A DNA stretch of 64,000 bases, taken from assembly GCA_045803545.1 (NCBI GenBank), contig JBJMOW010000002.1, positions 416,001 through 480,000 on the forward strand. The letters are read 5' to 3'. This DNA comes from Gemmatimonadaceae bacterium. GTDB taxonomy: Bacteria > Gemmatimonadota > Gemmatimonadetes > Gemmatimonadales > Gemmatimonadaceae. Of the stretch, positions 10,172-19,772 are shown in pieces. Positions within the stretch are counted from its first letter, which is position 1, and each line of letters opens with the position of its first letter. The translations under genes and the position numbers were made by a program. Below the pieces are notes generated by a model, which was not told the origin of the DNA, made no database searches, and saw only the letters and a list, made by a program, of their open reading frames with translations.

Positions 10172-10257
10172 ATCAGGCGAATTGGTTGGGGCGAGGTCCG
10201 AAAGTTATCGCAGCCAGCAAGTAGACGGAATTGAATCCGGCTGCTACTGTCGTTGCT

Positions 10258-11592
10258 ATGACATCCAAAATCTCACTGCCACTAATTTGCAGGCGGATCG
10301 CCTGCGCCGCGCTCGCGGTAACAGCGATTCTTTCGACCGCATCACGGCGGGCGAAGGCACAGGCCTCCCCCAGCGCACGCTTAACCCCCATCGAGCAGAA
10401 GATTCGCGACTATGTGCGCGCGCACGAAAGCGAGCAGATCACCTTCCTGGAAAAAGCCGTGAATATCAGTAGCGGCACGCTCAACCTCGCCGGAGTCCGT
10501 TCGGTGGGGCGACTGTTTGCTCCCGAGTTTGCGTCGATCGGTTTCGACACGACGTGGGTTGCCTTACCGGACGCCGTCGGGCGGGCCGGACATCTTTTCG
10601 CCGAGCGCAAGGGTGATCGAGGAAAGCGACTCATACTGTTAGGTCATCTCGACACGGTGTTCGAGGGCGAAGGCGAAAGGTTCGTGCGTCTCGACACTCT
10701 GGCTGCAGGGGCAGGCAGCTCGGATATGAAGGGTGGTGACGCTGTGATTCTTTACGCGCTCAAGGCGTTGCAAAGCGTCGGCGCTTTGAAGGGCACGCGG
10801 ATCGCGGTAGCGCTGATGGGCGACGAGGAAGATGCCGGACCGCTCGATAAGGTTTCCCGTCAGCCGCTGATCGACCTTGCGAAGCGCAGCGATGCTGCGC
10901 TGGGCTTCGAGGAGGACGCTGGGAAGGGAACAGTCGCCCGTCGCGGGTTCAGTGGTTGGCAGCTGACTGTGACCGCGCGACAGGCGCATTCCTCGGGGAT
11001 TTTTCAGCCGGGCTCGTCGGACGGCGCGATTTACGAAGCAGCGCGGATTCTAAACACGTTTCGAGAGCGATTGTCGAGCGAGCAGTATCTGACGTTCAAT
11101 CCGGCGATCATAGTCGGCGGCACTGACGTCACCTACGATTCGACCAAGATCTCCGGCACGACTGCGGGGAAGGACAACATCATCGCGCCAAAGGCATATG
11201 CGCGCGGTGATCTTCGCTTCATCTCCGACGAGCAGCTGCAGAAAGCGCGCGAAACGATGCGTGCGATCGTCGCCGACCATTTACCCGGCACGACAGCCAC
11301 GATCACCTTTGAGGACGGAAATCCGGCGATGCCGCCAACGAAGGGCAACATGGCTTTGCTGGCCGTCGAGGACGCGGTGAGCAGGGCTTTGGGTCAAGGC
11401 CCGGTCGAAGCGCTCGACCCCGGACGACGTGGCGGCGGCGATATCTCCTACATCTCCCAGTATCTCGATGCTCTGGATGGACTGGGTGTCATAGGAATGC
11501 GCTCTCACACGCCCGACGAGCGCGTCGATCTCCGGTCGATTGTCCCGGCGACCGAGAGAGCGGCGCTCCTTATTTACAGGCTGACGAGATAG
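10258..11592 (+). CDS. Secreted M20 family metallopeptidase (carboxypeptidase G2/ArgE-like)
   Basis: Signal peptide ending AKA-Q; metal ligands GHLDTV, DMKGG, GDEE, GFE, HTPDE. Confidence 0.88.
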   Translation: MTSKISLPLICRRIACAALAVTAILSTASRRAKAQASPSARLTPIEQKIRDYVRAHESEQITFLEKAVNISSGTLNLAGVRSVGRLFAPEFASIGFDTTWVALPDAVGRAGHLFAERKGDRGKRLILLGHLDTVFEGEGERFVRLDTLAAGAGSSDMKGGDAVILYALKALQSVGALKGTRIAVALMGDEEDAGPLDKVSRQPLIDLAKRSDAALGFEEDAGKGTVARRGFSGWQLTVTARQAHSSGIFQPGSSDGAIYEAARILNTFRERLSSEQYLTFNPAIIVGGTDVTYDSTKISGTTAGKDNIIAPKAYARGDLRFISDEQLQKARETMRAIVADHLPGTTATITFEDGNPAMPPTKGNMALLAVEDAVSRALGQGPVEALDPGRRGGGDISYISQYLDALDGLGVIGMRSHTPDERVDLRSIVPATERAALLIYRLTR

Positions 11593-11632
11593 AAAAAAAC
11601 GGCACGCCAGGATCGGCGTGCCGTTTCTCTTT
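11593..11632. terminator. Bidirectional intrinsic terminator
   Basis: A7 run, stem AAACGGCACGCC-aggatc-GGCGTGCCGTTT, then CTCTTT; lies between the convergent M20 and SusD genes. Confidence 0.85.
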
Positions 11633-11647
11633 CAAGCGCGGCAAGAA

Positions 11648-13036
11648 TCAGTACCCGGGATTCTGTACCATGTTTGGTGAAACGTCGAGCTCAGACTGAG
11701 GAATCGGCAACAGATCCTGTGCTGCTGGGATGTTCGCCAGTCCAGTGTTCGTGCGGATCATGTCCGGCCAGCGATCACCCTCGAATGCCAGCTCCAGCCG
11801 GCGTTCGTTGGCAATTGCTGCCAGCGCCTGCGCCTGGGTTAGCGTGGTCGGGTCGGGTGCAACACCCGCTCTCACACGCAGCCGGTTGTATTCGGCGACT
11901 GCTTCCGGAACACGATTGAGGCGCGCCAATGCTTCGGCGCGAATCAGGATTACCTCGGCAAGTCTGATCACGTGCAGATCTTCGTCGCCCGCCGGATTTC
12001 TGAACTTCGCGGCGTAGGTACGCGTTCCCGCGCGAGCAATTGAATACTTGCCGCGCAGATCGGTTGGATTGTAGGTGGCAATGTTGCCGCCCGACGCAGG
12101 ATCGAATGCGGCAATAATGCCGGTGGTGCCCAAGGTGTTATCGATGCTGGTGGTCGGAGCGACCTCGTACCTGCCACCCAGTGCCTTTGGCAAATAGTAA
12201 ATACTTGCGGCGTGCGCCTGGGTTGGAGTGAAGGTCACTCTGAAGATGTCTTCCGGCGTATTGCTGCCTGTGGCATCGAAGAGATCCGAGAAGGTGGGTG
12301 CGAGTGAATACCCCATCCCCTCGGTTACGGCAGCAGCCGCTTCGGCGCCGGCATAGTCACCGTTGTACAGCCTCACGCGCGCCTCGATTGCGGAAACGGC
12401 ACCGAGTGAGGCCTGGCGTGTCTGGCTGCGCCCGGCCGTAATCAACTGCTTGGCCTGCGCGAGATCAGCAAGGACCTGCGTGTAAACCGCCGAGCCGGCT
12501 GCCCGTGTTGCCTCGTTTGCCGCACTCGCACTTGTCACCGGCGCCAGAATCAAGGGCACACCTAAAGCCCCGGTGTTGCCATAGAGCTTCACGAGATCAT
12601 GGTAAGTCAGCGCGCGCAGGAAATACGCCTCGCCGAGCGTCTCGTTCTTCTCGGCGTCGTCCATGTCGGTGAGAGCAGGAACCTTATCCAGGATCTGATT
12701 CACTCGATTGATTTCGTTGTACGCAGCATCCCAGATCGCCGTCGCTCGAAAGTTATCGGAGCGAAGGAGGTGTTGGTCGGCGTCCGCATAATCGTCGAAC
12801 GTACCGACCCAACGCGCGTTGTCGGACAGGACTTCGGTCCAGTCGACGAGGTCGTGACCGTACAGCCCAGCCGCCTGCAGCCCTGCGTACGCGCCCTGAA
12901 GAGCGGCGCGCGCCCCGACAGCGTCGGAGATCGCAGTCCCGGAGGCGATCGAGCTGGTTGGCGGAACATCGAGCGTATTGCTGCACGCGCTCAGTCCCAC
13001 CGCCGCAAGCACCAGCAAAAGTTTATTGATTCGCAT
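11648..13036 (-). CDS. RagB/SusD family outer-membrane lipoprotein
   Basis: Lipobox LSAC; GEAYFLRALTYHDLV, IRLAEVILIRAEA, ERRLELAFEGDRW, C-terminal QNPGY. Alternative start at 13069. Confidence 0.95.
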   Translation of the reverse strand: MRINKLLLVLAAVGLSACSNTLDVPPTSSIASGTAISDAVGARAALQGAYAGLQAAGLYGHDLVDWTEVLSDNARWVGTFDDYADADQHLLRSDNFRATAIWDAAYNEINRVNQILDKVPALTDMDDAEKNETLGEAYFLRALTYHDLVKLYGNTGALGVPLILAPVTSASAANEATRAAGSAVYTQVLADLAQAKQLITAGRSQTRQASLGAVSAIEARVRLYNGDYAGAEAAAAVTEGMGYSLAPTFSDLFDATGSNTPEDIFRVTFTPTQAHAASIYYLPKALGGRYEVAPTTSIDNTLGTTGIIAAFDPASGGNIATYNPTDLRGKYSIARAGTRTYAAKFRNPAGDEDLHVIRLAEVILIRAEALARLNRVPEAVAEYNRLRVRAGVAPDPTTLTQAQALAAIANERRLELAFEGDRWPDMIRTNTGLANIPAAQDLLPIPQSELDVSPNMVQNPGY

Positions 13037-13079
13037 GATTTGATTGGTTCGAGAGTTTAGACGTGTCATGATATGCGGC

Positions 13080-16000
13080 CTACCAGTCCGTGCTCAGGCC
13101 AACCATCCACGTGCGGGCCAACGGATAGGAGTAGAACTCCTGACCGAGCGAAATGTTCGACCCCGAGCCGTTGCTGTTTACATCAGGGTTGTAGCCCTTG
13201 AAGTTGGTCCACGTCTTCAGGTTCCGACCACTCACGTACAAGCGGGTGTTGTCCAGGCCAGCGAAGCGTGCGACCCTGGCCGGCACCTTCATTCCGAGCG
13301 TGACTTCCTGCAGTCGAGTGTAGTTACCCGGCTCGACGAACCTCGAAGAGTTGATGTAGCCCTGCGAAGTCCCGTCCCAGCTCGGACGCGGCTCGTCGGT
13401 GATATCACCTGGCTGCTGCCAGCGACGTAACGCGTACGCGAACTTGTTGTCGCGATTGAAGCCCGCGTCATCAGAGAACTCTCTGACGCCGTTCCAGATC
13501 TGGTTTCCGCCGCTGAATTGAACGGCGGCGCGCAGATCGAAGGGTCCCGCGGTAAAGGTATTCGTTACGCCACCCCAGACTGTTGGCTGCGGGCTACCGA
13601 CAACGACGCGGTCGTCGGCGTTGATCGCGCCATCGCCGTTCGTGTCCTGGTACATGGCGTCGCCCGTTTGGGGATCCACCCCGAGGAACTTGATCAGATA
13701 GAACGCTCCCAGCGGCTCGCCAACACGGACCGAGTTCACACCGTCGACGCCGCTATAGATCGGCTGATTCTGGTATAGCGCGGTCACGCGATTCCTGTTG
13801 TGCGAGTAGTTGTAGCTCGTCTGCCACGAGAAACTCCCCGGTCCGCTGCCGCGAATAAGGTCTGTGGTTAGCTCGAGCTCGACACCCTGATTCTCAATGT
13901 TGCCGATATTGTCCGTAAACGACGTGAACCCACTGGTCGCACTAATCGGTCGAGTGACCAACAGGTTGGATGTTTTCTTCCTGTACCAGTCGCCGACAAT
14001 CCCAATGCGGCCGTCGAACATCGTCCAGTCAAAACCTAAGTCGGTCTCTCTGGTCTGCTCCCACTTCAGGTCGCGATTACCGAAATTGTTCGGTGCGATT
14101 CCGCCGGCCTTGCCATAGTTCGCGGAGCTATCCGTAGCGCGGAATGCCTGGTTACCGATGCCCTGGTTGCCGGTCGTGCCGACGCTACCCCGAAGCTTGA
14201 TCGAACCGACCCTGGAAAGACCACTCAACATCGGTTCTTGAGTGATTACCCACCCAAGAGAGAAGGCAGGGAATACGCCCCAGCGGCTGTCAGGGCCGAA
14301 TCTCGAGGAGCCGTCCGCGCGCACGCTGGCGCTAGCCAGATAGCGCTCTGCGAGATTGAGGTTTGCACGCGCAAAGTAGGAAAGAAGATTGTTCGCGCTG
14401 CGGCTTCCGTCGTAGACCACCGGGGTAGTCGCGCTGCCGACGTCGTGGAGCGCCGGACTGCTGAAGCCTTGACCCTCAATCCGGTTGAGTTCTTGTGTAT
14501 TGCGTTCGGTGCTCGCACCAAGCGTGGTGGTAAGCGTTCCTCTGCTGCTCCCGGAGAACGGAGTCAGTGTGAAGAAGCCTTCGCCTACAAAGCGACTCCC
14601 GGTGTTGTATGCCGAGGTGGCATCACCGCCCACGCCTCCGTTCTCATCGACTACGAGCGGCGAACCCCAAAGGCGTTCGTGCAGCACGAGGTTGTCGCCA
14701 GAGAGGCGCGTCGTAAACTGCGCCCAATTCGCCAAATTGTAATTGCCTTCAACGTTCGCCAGGACTCGGTTCGTCGTCGTAGGGTTATAGTCGTAGGTCG
14801 CGATGGCCAGCGGGTTGGTGTACTGAATGCCGGTGACGTCGTTTGTGCTGAACGTCCCATCGGGATTGTAGACCGGCATGTTCGGCTGGTCAGCAATCGC
14901 ATTTGGACCGGTTCCGCTAATTGTGTTATCGCTCACCTGGCGATAGTTGACCTCGCGGGAAAGGCCCACTGAAGCCTTGATGGACAGTCTGTCAGTCGGG
15001 TCGAAGTCGATATTGGCGCGGCCGCTCGACCGATTGTACGAGGTGGCGAGCTGAATGCCCTCCTGACCGAAGTACGAGCCCGAGACGTAGTACTTCACTC
15101 TGCCGCTGCCACCGGTCAAGCCGATATTCGCATCACGAACTGGGGCCGTCCTATAAACGAGGGACTGCCAATTGGTGTTGAATTGGTCGTCAATCCCAAC
15201 TCCAAAGCCGGTGTCGATAATGTCCTGCGGTGTATAACCGTCATTCGTCATGCCCTCGGCCATGTAGGCGACGTACTCAGTACCGGTGAGCATGTGCAGG
15301 AGCTTCTCCGGCTTCTGCCATCCCGTGTATCCGTTGAATGTGATACGGTTGTTGCCGGCGATACCACGCTTGGTCGTGATCATGACAACGCCGTTGGATG
15401 CGCGCGAGCCATAGATGCCGGCCGACGCAGCGTCCTTCAGGATGGTGATCGACTCGATTTCGTCCGGATTCAGGTTTGTAACTGCCGTCAAATCCTGGCC
15501 ACCGAATCCGACCTGCGTGAAATCCTCCGTCTGTACTGGCACGCCGTCCACCACGAACAGCGGCTGGTTACTGGCGGTCAGCGATGAGGCTCCGCGCACG
15601 CGAATGGAAATGCCGTTGCCCGGATTACCAGCGTTCTGCGTCACCTGAACGCCAGCGGCTTTGCCCTGTAGTGCGGCATCGATGCCCGCGATCGGAATGT
15701 TACGGATGTCAGATGCGGCGACGGTTGTCAGTGCGCCGGTTACTTCGGAGCGATTGCTCGATCCATAACCGACAACAACCACCTGCGACAGCGTTGGGAT
15801 GACCGAACGCAACATCACGTCCGCTCCCGCAGTCGCACCATCCGCAACGCTCACAGTCGCTGTCTGCTGCGCGAATCCGATCTTCTGAATCCGCACCGTC
15901 GCAGTGCCAGCCGTTACGCCGGTGAAGCGATAAACGCCGGACGCATCGGTGAAGGTTGTGCGATTCGTGCCGACGAGCTGCACCTGCGCTCCGCCAACCG

Positions 16001-16130
16001 GCTGCTGCGTCGTTGAATCGACTACTGTCCCGCGAATAGTCCCGGTGCCCTGGGCGTGCGCGGTTCGCAGAGGCAGCAACGCCACTGCGGCTACAACGAG
16101 AAATTTCCAACCAATCTTCAAGCTTTTCAT
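13080..16130 (-). CDS. SusC/RagA family TonB-dependent outer-membrane transporter
   Basis: Signal peptide, carboxypeptidase-regulatory-like N-domain, VVVVGYG, SusC signature IESITILKDAASAGIYGSRASNGVVMITTKRG, LKWEQT. AGGAGG SD before ATG 16130. Confidence 0.96.
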   Translation of the reverse strand: MKSLKIGWKFLVVAAVALLPLRTAHAQGTGTIRGTVVDSTTQQPVGGAQVQLVGTNRTTFTDASGVYRFTGVTAGTATVRIQKIGFAQQTATVSVADGATAGADVMLRSVIPTLSQVVVVGYGSSNRSEVTGALTTVAASDIRNIPIAGIDAALQGKAAGVQVTQNAGNPGNGISIRVRGASSLTASNQPLFVVDGVPVQTEDFTQVGFGGQDLTAVTNLNPDEIESITILKDAASAGIYGSRASNGVVMITTKRGIAGNNRITFNGYTGWQKPEKLLHMLTGTEYVAYMAEGMTNDGYTPQDIIDTGFGVGIDDQFNTNWQSLVYRTAPVRDANIGLTGGSGRVKYYVSGSYFGQEGIQLATSYNRSSGRANIDFDPTDRLSIKASVGLSREVNYRQVSDNTISGTGPNAIADQPNMPVYNPDGTFSTNDVTGIQYTNPLAIATYDYNPTTTNRVLANVEGNYNLANWAQFTTRLSGDNLVLHERLWGSPLVVDENGGVGGDATSAYNTGSRFVGEGFFTLTPFSGSSRGTLTTTLGASTERNTQELNRIEGQGFSSPALHDVGSATTPVVYDGSRSANNLLSYFARANLNLAERYLASASVRADGSSRFGPDSRWGVFPAFSLGWVITQEPMLSGLSRVGSIKLRGSVGTTGNQGIGNQAFRATDSSANYGKAGGIAPNNFGNRDLKWEQTRETDLGFDWTMFDGRIGIVGDWYRKKTSNLLVTRPISATSGFTSFTDNIGNIENQGVELELTTDLIRGSGPGSFSWQTSYNYSHNRNRVTALYQNQPIYSGVDGVNSVRVGEPLGAFYLIKFLGVDPQTGDAMYQDTNGDGAINADDRVVVGSPQPTVWGGVTNTFTAGPFDLRAAVQFSGGNQIWNGVREFSDDAGFNRDNKFAYALRRWQQPGDITDEPRPSWDGTSQGYINSSRFVEPGNYTRLQEVTLGMKVPARVARFAGLDNTRLYVSGRNLKTWTNFKGYNPDVNSNGSGSNISLGQEFYSYPLARTWMVGLSTDW

Positions 16131-16205
16131 TCCCCCTCCTCCGTTGGAACGGTCTACTGCATTGGCGGCCACGTGCCGCCGACGATCAAGGTGCTTGGTG
16201 CATCA

Positions 16206-17132
16206 TTACCGCGAACCCGGAAGTAACGCCTCCCCGGTCCGCGGATCGTACGCGCTCCCCGCTGGAAGGAGCGACAGCTTCACGCCGGTTGATCCCAAAA
16301 CGCCGGCGGTTGCGGATGTGGTTCGCGAACCACGCGCGTCCAATATCATCACCACGCTTCTTCCCAGTACCAGCCATTTCCCGTCCGGCGTTACCTCCAG
16401 CGCGGTGCCTTCATCGATTCCCACGCCCAACAGCGACGGCCTCTCCAGCACGACACTGATCAAGCGGTTCGCCCGCTGCCGCCTTATGAAGTGCTGGTCG
16501 ACAATTGCGTTGTGGACGAAGCCCAGTCCCGGCACAATCTCGATCACGTGACGGCCAACTCGGGTGAAATTCGACGAGTCGAGCGCTGCTGCCGAACCCG
16601 GATAAAACTGATTGCCGGTAATCATCGAGTCGCTCATCACCGCCGCGCCGGCCGACGTGCCTCCGACGACTGCGCCGGCGTTGTAGCGGTCGTGAATCGC
16701 CCGCAATACCGCAGACCCGCCGAGAGCTCCCGTCAGCAGCGATTGATCGCCACCGGGGAACCAGATTCCACTCGCTGTTTGAACTTTCCTGACAAGAGAA
16801 TCGTCGTCAGCGCGCGAGCGAGGAAAATTCAGAACAAATGAATCGGCACCGAGGCTATCGAGCTGCGCCTCCTTTTCCGCGCCGGCTTCAGCTGCTTCCG
16901 ATGTCGCCATCGGCAGAATTGCGATTCGTGCCTTACCACGCCCGCCGGCCAGATCGACGAAATGCTTGACCAGCTCATCGGGCTGCGAGCCACCCCCGAC
17001 GATCAATAGGGTACCGCGTGGAGCGGCCGGGGTAGATCGCTCAGAAAACATTGCGGTGCGCGATGCTGCCGTGGATGCACATCCAGCGACGACGAGGCAC
17101 GTCAGTACGCGACCCGCATGACGCGCGATCAT
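16206..17132 (-). CDS. cphB: Cyanophycinase (peptidase S51), predicted lipoprotein
   Basis: LLIVGGG, FPGGDQ, nucleophile GTSAG, DQHFIRRQRANRL, GIDEGTAL. Start 17132 overlaps the IclR stop (ATGA) and gives lipobox VAGC. Confidence 0.85.
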   Translation of the reverse strand: MIARHAGRVLTCLVVAGCASTAASRTAMFSERSTPAAPRGTLLIVGGGSQPDELVKHFVDLAGGRGKARIAILPMATSEAAEAGAEKEAQLDSLGADSFVLNFPRSRADDDSLVRKVQTASGIWFPGGDQSLLTGALGGSAVLRAIHDRYNAGAVVGGTSAGAAVMSDSMITGNQFYPGSAAALDSSNFTRVGRHVIEIVPGLGFVHNAIVDQHFIRRQRANRLISVVLERPSLLGVGIDEGTALEVTPDGKWLVLGRSVVMILDARGSRTTSATAGVLGSTGVKLSLLPAGSAYDPRTGEALLPGSR

Positions 17133-17941
17133 GACGCTACCTTCGGCCGATGGCCGTTTGTCAATCTCACTGATGGCGCCGCGCCAAGCCGACGCGAGAC
17201 CCGAGTCGCGGCTTCGCAAAGGCCGGAAAGAAGCTCACGCCGCCGCTTCGGTGTGAGACGGGAACCCGGTCCGTTGATACTGATTGCAGCCGCTACGTAC
17301 CCGAGATGATTGCGAATCGGTGCCGCCATCGCGACCAGGCCGGGCTCGAGCTCATCGACCGCGAACGCGTATCCGTGCTGCTTCACCCGCGCGAGCTCCC
17401 GCTCCAGCTCCGTCCTCGTGACGATCGTACGCTTCGAGAAGCGGGTGAGGCGTGGCAGTGGACGTCGCGGCTCCGAGAACGCCAGCAGGATCTTTCCGGT
17501 CGACGTTGCGTGAATGGGCCACCGACGGCCGATTTCGGGAGTGGCGCTAAAGAGAAATTTGCCCTGTACCTCATCGACCACCAGCACATCGCCGCCGGTC
17601 AGGATTTCGAGTGTCGATGTCTCCCCGGAGTCATCGGTAAGTCGGAGCAGCTCCTGATGAGCAACCTCCCGCAGATCGGTCGTCGAGAGCGCTGACGCTC
17701 CGAGGGTGATGATCTCCGGACCGAGCCGATAGGCGCCGTTGACACCATCGCGGGCAACCATTCCCTCGTTTTCCAGCGCACCAAGCAGCCGGAAGACGGT
17801 CGCCTTGCTGAGGCCCGTCGCCGTGCCCAGCTCGGTGATGCCATACGCGCTGGACGAGCGTCCAAGCGCCTTCAGGACGGTCACAGCACGTACTACTGCC
17901 CGCGTGCCTGTGAGAGGACGCAAATTGGAACGGCGTTTCAT
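17129..17941 (-). CDS. IclR family transcriptional regulator
   Basis: HTH GITELGTATGLSKATVFRLL; effector domain HATSTGKILLA, GYAFAVDE, AAPIRN...AAISINGP. Confidence 0.93.
   Translation of the reverse strand: MKRRSNLRPLTGTRAVVRAVTVLKALGRSSSAYGITELGTATGLSKATVFRLLGALENEGMVARDGVNGAYRLGPEIITLGASALSTTDLREVAHQELLRLTDDSGETSTLEILTGGDVLVVDEVQGKFLFSATPEIGRRWPIHATSTGKILLAFSEPRRPLPRLTRFSKRTIVTRTELERELARVKQHGYAFAVDELEPGLVAMAAPIRNHLGYVAAAISINGPGSRLTPKRRRELLSGLCEAATRVSRRLGAAPSVRLTNGHRPKVAS
17926..17940. promoter_or_regulatory. Candidate IclR operator TGGAACGGCGTTTCA
   Basis: 15-bp pseudo-palindrome overlapping the iclR start codon; same format as the E. coli IclR box TGGAAATNATTTCCA. Confidence 0.35.
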
Positions 17942-18060
17942 AAAGAGCGGCTACATTGTTTCGCCGCTCAATAGTTGTCAAGAATTCTTTTGTTAACGGC
18001 GTGTGAATTTTAGCGAACGGCGACGCGCGCTTTTCGGGAGCAGCGGAGCGTTGGCGGCGG

Positions 18061-18090
18061 TTGACACTGCCCGGCGGAACTGCCTACCTT
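18061..18090 (+). promoter_or_regulatory. Putative sigma70 promoter of asnS
   Basis: TTGACA-N18-TACCTT ending 30 nt before the asnS ATG. Confidence 0.4.
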
Positions 18091-18120
18091 GCCGCGCGAG
18101 ACGCGCCCCATCACCACTAC

Positions 18121-19422
18121 ATGCCAGCTAAGTACTCACGTATCTCGGAGTTACCGTCCAGCTCCGGTCAGACCGTTCGCATCCGCGGATGGGTAACTCA
18201 CGTACGCTCGTCCGGAAAAGTCGCCTTCGCTGTCATACGGGACGGAACAGGTATAGCGCAGGCTGTTTTTGTAAAAAGTGTGGTCAGTCCCGAAACGTGG
18301 GATGCTTTTGCCCGACTGACGCAGGAGACGTCTGTCGACATCGAAGGCGACGTCAGGGCTGACGCCCGCTCGCCGGGCGGGTATGAGATTTCGGTGAAGG
18401 CCATGTCTGTGGTTGGCGAGAGTCCAATCGACTATCCGATCCAGCCAAAGGAGCACGGGATCGATTTTCTGCTCGATAACCGACACCTCTGGCTGCGCTC
18501 TCCGCGTCAGCGTGCGATCGCAAAAATTCGCGCCGAAGTTGAGCAGGCGATTCACGATTTCTTCTACGAGCGCGATTTCACTCGCGTTGATACTCCGATT
18601 CTGACGGGTGCGATCGGCGAGCGTAGCGGGTTGTTCGAAACGGAATATTTCGACGAAGGCAGCGCCTACCTGGCGCAGACGGGACAGCTCTATGGCGAGG
18701 CCGCCGCTGCCGCGCTCGGCAAGATCTACTGCTTCGGTCCAACGTTCCGCGCAGAGAAGTCAAAAACCCGGCGCCATCTCACAGAATTCTGGATGATAGA
18801 ACCCGAGGTCGCATTCAACGACTCGGATGACAACATGCGGCTCCAGGAGGATTTCGTCTCCTACATCGTCGCGCGCGTGCTGGAGCGCCGACAGCCGGAG
18901 TTGAAAGAGCTCGAACGCGACACATCCAAGCTGGAAAGCATCAAGCCACCCTTTCCGCGCATCAATTACACCGAGGCAGTGAAGATTCTTCAGCAGAAGG
19001 GGAGCTCTGTAAAATGGGGAGATGACCTCGGTGCCGAGGATGAGTCACTGCTTGTAGAAGGTCACGACCGACCGGTATTCATCTTCAACTATCCCAAGCA
19101 AGCGAAGGCGTTCTACATGAAGGAAAATCCAGAGGATCCGCGCACAGTGTTGTGTGATGATCTACTGGCTCCCGAGGGGTACGGCGAGATCATTGGCGGA
19201 TCGCAGCGCGAGGATGACTACGACAAGCTGGTGGCGCGTATCAAGGAAGAAGGCCTGCCCATGGATTCGTACGGCTGGTACCTGGATTTGAGGAAGTACG
19301 GCACCTTCGTGCACGCCGGCTTTGGTCTGGGCCTGGAGCGAACAGTCGGCTGGATTTGCGGAATTCATCACATCCGCGAAGCGATTGCGTTTCCGAGGAC
19401 GATGAACCGCTTGCGCCCCTGA
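18121..19422 (+). CDS. asnS: Asparagine--tRNA ligase
   Basis: OB-fold N-terminus, YLAQTGQLY, motif 2 FRAEKSKTRRHLTEFWMIEPE, GEIIGGSQRE, motif 3 GLGLER. Confidence 0.95.
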   Translation: MPAKYSRISELPSSSGQTVRIRGWVTHVRSSGKVAFAVIRDGTGIAQAVFVKSVVSPETWDAFARLTQETSVDIEGDVRADARSPGGYEISVKAMSVVGESPIDYPIQPKEHGIDFLLDNRHLWLRSPRQRAIAKIRAEVEQAIHDFFYERDFTRVDTPILTGAIGERSGLFETEYFDEGSAYLAQTGQLYGEAAAAALGKIYCFGPTFRAEKSKTRRHLTEFWMIEPEVAFNDSDDNMRLQEDFVSYIVARVLERRQPELKELERDTSKLESIKPPFPRINYTEAVKILQQKGSSVKWGDDLGAEDESLLVEGHDRPVFIFNYPKQAKAFYMKENPEDPRTVLCDDLLAPEGYGEIIGGSQREDDYDKLVARIKEEGLPMDSYGWYLDLRKYGTFVHAGFGLGLERTVGWICGIHHIREAIAFPRTMNRLRP

Positions 19423-19454: not shown

Positions 19455-19772
19455 ATGGGTTTTGATCAATATCACGAGCCGCCGGATGAACTCTCTCCAA
19501 AGACGCGGACTTTTGCGCGCATGATCGCCTCGCTGATCGAGGAGGCGGAAGCGATCGGCTGGTACGAGCAGCGTTTGGCGGTCGAACAGGACAAGGAGGC
19601 GCGGGCGATCATGCGCAACGCTCAGCACGAGGAATTCAAGCACTTCGGAATGGACCTCGAGTTTCTACTGCGGCGGACTCCTAAATGGCGCGAGACGCTC
19701 AAGGGGATTCTGTTCAAGTCGGGCGACATCGTCGAGCACGCCGAGGAGGCGGAGGAAGAATCGGACGACTAG
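19455..19772 (+). CDS. Encapsulated-ferritin-like (EncFtn/Flp-type) small ferritin-like protein
   Basis: HEP..L, SLIEEAEAIGWYEQR, EEFKH..MDLEFL.R, KW...L...LF..GDI match the EncFtn pattern; AGGAG SD. Confidence 0.8.
   Translation: MGFDQYHEPPDELSPKTRTFARMIASLIEEAEAIGWYEQRLAVEQDKEARAIMRNAQHEEFKHFGMDLEFLLRRTPKWRETLKGILFKSGDIVEHAEEAEEESDD

Follow-up and report, generated by a model that had tools for sequence, protein, structure and literature searches.

Known work on the entry of cyanophycin into cells covers, in the texts accessible to us, the secreted cyanophycinase CphE and the inner-membrane uptake of dipeptides by AotJQMP, and not the outer-membrane step; in the available text of the paper that treats CphZ and AotJQMP, neither "TonB" nor "outer membrane" occurs (PMC9974463). 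A "cyanophycin utilization locus" was described for strain L21-Spi-D4 (Salinivirga cyanobacteriivorans; Ben Hania et al., 2017), and, as cited in PMC10206079 and PMC6243061, it comprises cyanophycinases, iadA, and a transporter. For Citromicrobium sp. JLT1363, cyanophycin was proposed in 2012, from gene context, as the substrate of a TonB transporter encoded beside a cyanophycinase (PMC3400609). PULDB predicts polysaccharide utilization loci (PULs) with susCD in Gemmatimonadetes (PMC5753385), and SusCD pairs can import peptides, as exemplified by RagAB (bioRxiv 10.1101/755678). Here, we analyze a four-gene unit, consisting of iclR, a gene for an S51 peptidase, susC, and susD, in a 64,000-nucleotide stretch of DNA (the window) from a Gemmatimonadaceae bacterium (GCA_045803545.1, contig JBJMOW010000002.1, positions 416,001 to 480,000). 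We judge it moderately probable that this unit is a conserved system of Gemmatimonadota that scavenges cyanophycin, with import by SusCD, cutting by an exported S51 enzyme, and gating by IclR.

The L21-Spi-D4 locus resembles our unit in combining one or more cyanophycinases with a transporter, in the lack of a synthetase, in its genome-based prediction, in its host from the Fibrobacteres–Chlorobi–Bacteroidetes group, and in its proposed role in environmental scavenging. As far as the citing papers describe it, it has iadA, whereas the Gemmatimonadota unit contains neither a dipeptidase nor an inner-membrane transporter gene, is headed by an IclR regulator with its own candidate operator, and occurs in hosts that often carry the synthetase gene cphA. 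Of the components that the accessible part of PMC10206079 gives for such loci, cyanophycinase and transporter are present here and an isoaspartyl dipeptidase is absent from the cluster; such loci are typical of genomes lacking cphA, but our host genome and 10 of the 16 genomes with a linked locus have cphA, the other six giving no match. The Citromicrobium case shares the outer-membrane TonB transporter next to a cyanophycinase; its host is an Alphaproteobacterium, and neither SusD nor IclR is mentioned in the text available. Like PULs, the unit combines a tandem susC–susD with a regulator gene of its own and with an exported hydrolase encoded on the same transcript, but the hydrolase is an S51 peptidase with a lipid anchor that is not conserved, and the regulator is of the IclR type. 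In its workings the unit is PUL-like, but it contains no carbohydrate-active enzyme (CAZyme) and does not qualify as a PUL. RagAB of Porphyromonas gingivalis is likewise a SusCD-type pair that, by the available account, imports peptides and not glycans (10.1101/755678). It takes protease-made oligopeptides, and it resembles our pair little in sequence: our SusC matches RagA with E 5.5e-70 (8aa4 with E 8.9e-121), our SusD matching RagB with E about 0.004. Extracellular CphE of Pseudomonas shares an export signal with the S51 protein, but the mature S51 protein has about 290 residues compared with about 400 given for CphE in the accessible part of PMC3235067.

The unit is a variant of a predicted kind of cyanophycin locus, and its S51–susC–susD feature is real and conserved. 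An initial interpretation from the DNA letters alone (the sequence-only reading) knew of no description of the arrangement; the idea has precedents, however, in the Ben Hania locus (via PMC10206079), the TonB transporter/cyanophycinase pair (PMC3400609), and the susCD loci of Gemmatimonadetes (PMC5753385), as far as these sources are accessible. An iclR–cyanophycinase–susCD unit, or an experiment on such a locus, was not found in the literature searched, with supplements and most subscription papers lying outside its scope.

Results

The S51 enzyme

The S51 protein reached 174.5 bits with the cyanophycinase model TIGR02069 (cut-off 126.6) and 28.4 bits with the PepE model, whose cut-off is 156. 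It contains the motifs GGDQ, GTSAG, DQHFIRRQRANRL, and GIDE, and an alignment to 3en0 and 7uqw places the catalytic triad at S160, H214, and E241. The third triad residue is thus Glu241, not Asp as in MccG; in the accessible part of PMC9239234, MccG and PepE illustrate how S51 enzymes vary in substrate. The residues reported as critical in CphB, namely Gln101, Asp172, Gln173, Arg178, Arg180, and Arg183 (PMC3235067, in part), align with identical residues Q130, D212, Q213, R218, R220, and R223. An AlphaFold model (predicted local distance difference test score 93.5, alignment of 84 sequences) has its best fold match in 7uqw, a CphB structure with a bound cyanophycin dimer (E 1.4e-24, template modeling score 0.88 by target length), and the matches to PepE structures are far weaker, with E 4e-10 or worse. 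An enzyme of the cyanophycinase type, not PepE, is supported by these comparisons, and the Ser-His-Glu triad, the GGDQ motif, and the Arg-rich segment named in the sequence-only reading could all be located.

Fold, triad, and the Gln/Asp/Gln/Arg/Arg/Arg pocket are therefore shared with Synechocystis CphB (3en0, 7uqw), but identity is about 31%, and the protein belongs to a separate, signal-peptide-bearing clade. In a 64-row tree, from which CphE was left out, this clade has a support of 86, is separate from the cphA-linked CphBs, and spans Gemmatimonadota, Planctomycetota, Acidobacteriota, Verrucomicrobiota, and Bacteroidota-like contigs. Most of its members show N-terminal signal peptides by eye. 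Among the orthologues, a lipobox pattern is found in 14/37 linked and 12/25 unlinked ones, and other signals end in AQ or AA. Since the export signal has been retained across the orthologues and the lipid anchor has not, the S51 enzyme is probably periplasmic; the surface lipoprotein that had been proposed keeps its lipobox in this copy, but it is not general.

A further, long-branched S51 group from other Gemmatimonadota families (L152-L156, L158-L163) has GGAM and GSSAG motifs. It shows no link to cphA or susCD and is possibly CphE-like.

Linkage of the S51 gene with susC and susD

A survey from the S51 side comprised 72 loci, of which 70 were evaluated. At S51 identities of at least 55%, susC–susD lies directly downstream in 20/20 loci and iclR upstream in 13/20; next to paralogues of 45–53% identity, susC–susD is present in none of eight evaluable Gemmatimonadota loci, four more being too short. 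The survey from the SusD side covered 301 genomes of the phylum and gave 40 regions, 36 of them loci with a SusD identity of at least 38%. Here, S51 is adjacent in 14 of the 32 complete loci, and for the four truncated loci, an S51 gene of the same genome adjoins susC or reaches the end of a contig. The four more distant SusD loci (below 38%) have no S51. Counted over the 301 genomes, both orthologues occur in 26, SusD alone in 10, S51 alone in 8, and neither in 257, kin among these genomes not being independent. Locus L103 has the reversed order susC–susD–S51, and its S51 protein lies outside the linked clade (support 100), which indicates a second, independent S51–SusCD coupling. The cultured Gemmatirosa kalamazoonensis KBS708 carries S51–susC–susD on plasmid 2 (NZ_CP007130.1, 653808-659139). 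No CAZyme family recurs among 88 related loci, and M20 and S9 peptidases are frequent neighbors of the lineage.

Four Bacteroidota-type seeds, one of them named Adhaeribacter aquaticus, led to 80 metagenome loci, many of them short, whose taxonomy was inferred from the seeds and a guanine-plus-cytosine (GC) content of 32-53%. In 6/80, S51 is co-directional with susC–susD (L216, L235, L243, L244, L246, L249), and three of these six have a beta-aspartyl-peptidase-like gene and two have YfcC, with scores under the curated cut-offs. Among all 80 loci, a beta-aspartyl peptidase-like gene lies beside S51 in six and YfcC in two. In eight near-identical Flavobacterium-like loci, S51 is preceded by susCD or susD, and those inspected carry rocD (ornithine aminotransferase) and lrp in between. 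By their predicted functions, the beta-aspartyl peptidase, YfcC, and rocD neighbors are downstream steps of cyanophycin use. As S51–susC–susD recurs in Gemmatimonadota and on Bacteroidota-like contigs, the objection that the susCD–cyanophycinase linkage might be confined to this one genome fails.

SusC trees were calculated with FastTree, after 23 near-duplicate rows had been dropped, and with IQ-TREE on 25 rows. In the 25-row tree, L244, L246, L235, and L173 join the SusC lineage of the locus at 89/97, and L243 and L249 fall outside, as do ten plasmid SusCs that had been selected for maximal similarity. The SusD tree places most of the plasmid background SusDs, CAZyme-linked ones included, in a group of their own at 99/96. 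The pattern is suggestive of a common origin of the S51-linked SusCD pairs of Gemmatimonadota and Bacteroidota.

In three Bacteroidota-like loci, susD is separated from the cyanophycinase gene by genes for additional lipoproteins (L243:5717-6823; L244:4746-7239; L246:9033-9917), among them a protein with weak resemblance to S51, PKD/DUF5050 proteins, and a protein with a cleaved-adhesin domain. In L119 (G216), S51, susC, and susD are all apparently frameshifted, by decay or assembly error. In L100 (G270), a BhcA-like aspartate-glyoxylate aminotransferase gene (L100:9486-10643; 556 bits, cut-off 650) converges on an S51-less iclR–susC–susD, and the IclR of this locus also best matches BhcR, below the cut-off.

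The M20 peptidase gene (10231-11592) that converges on susD was considered as a source of the second enzymatic step. It is next to 12/20 close loci but next to 0/36 SusD-picked loci, its orthologues occur in 70/301 genomes, one of which belongs to the same genus and lacks the locus, and it was therefore rejected as a mere neighbor. The encoded protein has a signal peptide and is glutamate carboxypeptidase-like; in L023, L025, and L034, the M20 gene precedes the unit, and near the Bacteroidota-like L249 there is a 51% relative.

Locus layout and candidate operator

The features of the locus are listed in Table 1. The four minus-strand genes, the coupling of iclR and the cyanophycinase gene by an ATGA overlap (17129-17132), the closure of the unit by one terminator, and the absence of a CAZyme gene (0/4 locus genes match CAZyme families) were all borne out. 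The probable start of susC is an ATG after GGAGG (GGAGGAGG). On both strands, the terminator hairpin (11597-11626) ends in a U-tail; its folding z values are -4.3 and -5.5, and 0/200 shuffles were equally stable. The hairpin was not picked up by a consensus terminator scan. The locus has a GC content of 0.59-0.62, the same as the window, and with GC flat across the locus, a horizontal island was rejected.

Table 1. Features of the four-gene unit, in window positions.
Feature	Position	Strand	Description
iclR	17129-17941	-	270 aa; PF01614 + PF09339; best NCBIfam match BhcR, 156.8 (below cut-off 350)
S51 cyanophycinase-type peptidase, predicted exported	16206-17132	-	308 aa; PF03575, TIGR02069; lipobox ending at Cys18
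SusC/RagA TonB-dependent transporter	13080-16130	-	about 1016 aa; TIGR04056 716 bits (cut-off 368), TIGR04057
SusD/RagB lipoprotein	11648-13036	-	462 aa; LSAC lipobox; PF07980 + PF14322; motifs W76-x-G-T-F, G287-G-R
Bidirectional intrinsic terminator	11593-11633	both	common to susD and the convergent M20 peptidase gene
Predicted sigma-70 promoter	17953-17981	-	-35 TTGACA (17976-17981), 17 nt, CAATGT (17953-17958)
Candidate IclR operator	17926-17940	-	palindrome TGAAAC-N3-GTTCCA; over iclR start codon, downstream of promoter

Our analysis adds a conserved promoter and a palindromic candidate operator over the iclR start. The predicted promoter leaves a very short leader ahead of iclR and was not picked up by a consensus promoter scan; by eye, a TTGAC-type -35 element is seen at similar spacing upstream in other iclR loci. 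A palindrome of the consensus TG(A/G)AAC-N3-(G/A)TT(C/T)CA covers the iclR start in 25/25 evaluable loci, two of the 27 iclR loci having been excluded as truncated, and five loci have a second, non-coding copy upstream of the ATG. With the position weight matrix derived from these sites (training scores of 18.7-26.5, which are circular), the best score upstream of S51 is at most 7.8 in the 12 linked loci without iclR, and the palindrome of our locus is the top match of its genome (26.2). A wider IclR regulon was rejected, as the three other genome matches of at least 20 lie inside coding sequences (two) or at the start of an unrelated open reading frame (ORF), and none of the three lies close to cphA or to the gene for the IadA-like enzyme. 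The pattern fits a locally autoregulated IclR repressor, so that the proposed control by IclR gains a conserved candidate operator that is absent from the loci lacking this gene. Parts of iclR, susC, and susD, together with the 3' end of the S51 gene, are represented in contigs assembled from four soil metatranscriptome runs; these runs were picked for containing the locus and DNA carry-over is possible, and they are therefore not counted as evidence.

Two unrelated FAD-dependent oxidases of the DAO family are encoded divergently from iclR in two host groups (L022-L025, L034; a subset of L092-L127). All five loci with a doubled operator have a divergent FAD oxidase gene, and IclR may therefore co-regulate the oxidase there. 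Such FAD amine oxidases, together with a Rieske oxygenase, were considered as signs of an amine substrate and judged to be an insertion-site effect; the oxidase is found in 33/301 genomes, most of which lack the locus, and a search of our host genome gave no match.

Cyanophycin genes elsewhere in the genome

The host assembly (G000, 93% complete) contains cphA at C2:235467-238052 (TIGR02068, 1123 bits). This is the only cphA match over the cut-off, and the window has none, as had been stated. A second cyanophycinase gene follows 1.2 kb past cphA, and a third, of the GGHEDK type, is at C4:1227663. The searches that the sequence-only reading had suggested thus gave a clear result for cphA; for iadA/iaaA, they gave an IadA-like gene at C4:1296219 that remains below the cut-off (306 versus 331 bits) and an Ntn hydrolase that bears a Tat-like signal and looks glycosylasparaginase-like. 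A POT peptide symporter is encoded at C5:228354, and there are several other susCD pairs, one of them in a LacI-led sugar-type cluster. With cphA and cyanophycinases elsewhere in its genome, the host is likely a producer with an extra exported enzyme and not a pure scavenger; the environmental scavenging that had been proposed is thus qualified, as this organism can also make cyanophycin. In the phylum, cphA exceeded the cut-off in 80/301 genomes sampled, and a literature search for Gemmatimonad* and cyanophycin gave no paper centered on cphA occurrence in the phylum.

At C2:235422-240084 (L001, L002, L011), a 370-aa ORF after cphA aligns with the cphA model over the model's N-terminal 155 positions only, and a divergent cyanophycinase with a DTHF motif and a long branch follows it. 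Other Gemmatimonadota have cphB–cphA plus a C-terminal cphA-like ORF instead. Within the window, a short ferritin-like protein (19455-19772), which we take to resemble encapsulin cargo by its motif, is encoded next to an Asn/Asp-type tRNA synthetase gene (18061-19422).

Discussion

The gene order and families, the catalytic and pocket residues, the signal peptides, the recurrent linkage, and the palindrome tied to iclR are observed, and we propose the following mechanism. Soluble cyanophycin chains would be captured by SusD and SusC and brought across the outer membrane; the predicted exported, exo-acting cyanophycinase would then, probably in the periplasm, release beta-Asp-Arg dipeptides from them. 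Bound to the palindrome, IclR would repress its own promoter and would be freed by an effector, likely Asp, Arg, or beta-Asp-Arg. The dipeptides may cross the inner membrane via an unlinked peptide transporter, such as the POT symporter, and the unlinked IadA-like enzyme may then split them. As the genome makes cyanophycin with a separate cytoplasmic set, the four-gene unit would be an outward-facing salvage arm. That cyanophycin is the substrate is an assignment we favor with moderate confidence. The capture system of the PUL type that was originally suggested is therefore partly supported: the S51–susCD linkage and the cyanophycinase type stand, and the general surface lipoprotein and the undescribed status do not.

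A number of points weigh against this proposal. The structure 7uqv, titled "pseudo-CphB", shares the S51 motifs and the pocket residues. As 7uqv is reportedly inactive on cyanophycin, the motifs alone are no proof of activity. The acidic loop GGAEDK of Synechocystis CphB is GGGSQP in our S51 protein, a loop that is also variable among the cphA-linked CphBs of Gemmatimonadota. An enzyme assay of any member of the exported S51 clade was not found in the literature searched. On the transporter side, an approximately unbiased test does not reject a grouping of the locus SusC with glycan-PUL SusCs (p-AU 0.127), and the nearest solved SusC/SusD structures are 8aa4 and 9sje, which we take to be dextran-binding. 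The SusD motif [WHF]xG[TS][FY], presumably the ligand loop of starch SusD, speaks for the proposal in that it occurs in 40/52 lineage members, 9/14 S51-linked Bacteroidota SusDs, and 0/12 background SusDs, but it was defined after the alignment had been viewed, and 7 of the 9 Bacteroidota matches are close Flavobacterium-like kin. Among the complete loci of the SusCD lineage, 18/32 have no adjacent S51, and L100 and L105 keep iclR without S51. No Gemmatimonadota locus examined contains an isoaspartyl dipeptidase or an inner-membrane transporter, and YfcC and an AstE/AspA-type domain were not found in the 93% complete host assembly. Finally, cyanophycin is poorly soluble, according to the accessible part of PMC10206079.

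The frequent loci without S51 would be expected if SusCD were a broader, RagAB-like peptide importer for Asp/isoAsp or other non-ribosomal peptides, with S51 trimming some of them and cyanophycin being at most one substrate. Related S51-less SusCDs in Hymenobacter plasmids and in family f8, the other peptidases (M20, S9) in the neighborhood, and the varied substrates of S51 enzymes (PepE and MccG; PMC9239234, in part) point in the same direction. We nevertheless consider this explanation rather unlikely, as it does not account for the repeated coupling to a cyanophycinase-type S51, twice independently in Gemmatimonadota, for the beta-aspartyl peptidase, YfcC, and rocD that accompany the coupling in Bacteroidota-like loci, or for the retention of all CphB pocket arginines.

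The poor solubility bears on the place of cleavage, since granular cyanophycin would be too insoluble to pass a pore unless cut. In the version of the sequence-only reading, S51 acts extracellularly or on the surface, and SusCD imports only released beta-Asp-Arg or short oligomers. The lipobox of this copy and of the 14/37 linked orthologues agrees with this, as does a secretin in the host genome, which at 209 bits remains below the GspD cut-off of 351. However, a clear type II secretion system was not found in this genome, and many orthologues have cleavable signals of the signal peptidase I type and no lipid anchor. Moreover, cyanophycinases are exo-acting, as stated in the accessible part of PMC10206079, and the resulting dipeptides would hardly need a SusD lid. 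Surface cleavage thus appears improbable to us. We regard it as very improbable that S51 is catalytically dead or has some unrelated substrate, or that its link to a glycan-importing SusCD is merely inherited gene order. The existence of pseudo-CphB, the outcome of the approximately unbiased test, and the presumed glycan ligands of the nearest solved relatives would be in line with it, but CAZyme families do not recur beside the lineage, the SusDs of CAZyme-PULs are separate, the coupling arose again in L103, and iclR and S51 share a candidate operator and are translationally coupled.

Returning to the import of cyanophycin chains with periplasmic cleavage, a bolder version is conceivable, which we hold to be possible but doubtful. 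An old SusCD lineage common to Bacteroidota and Gemmatimonadota would be a dedicated importer of a non-ribosomal polyamide, with SusD gripping cyanophycin via its W-x-G-T-F loop and the arginine of GGR, an exported cyanophycinase clade cutting it in the periplasm, and IclR sensing beta-Asp-Arg. Abundant cyanophycin-storing soil bacteria would thereby selfishly capture nitrogen from lysed neighbors.

The concept of a cyanophycin uptake locus is already in print and therefore not new, and the minimal cassette with its candidate operator and the cultured carrier KBS708 now make the "cyanophycin utilization locus" directly testable. If the proposal is true, the substrates of SusCD systems would widen to a non-ribosomal polyamide, and soil Gemmatimonadota would gain a role in the recycling of organic nitrogen.

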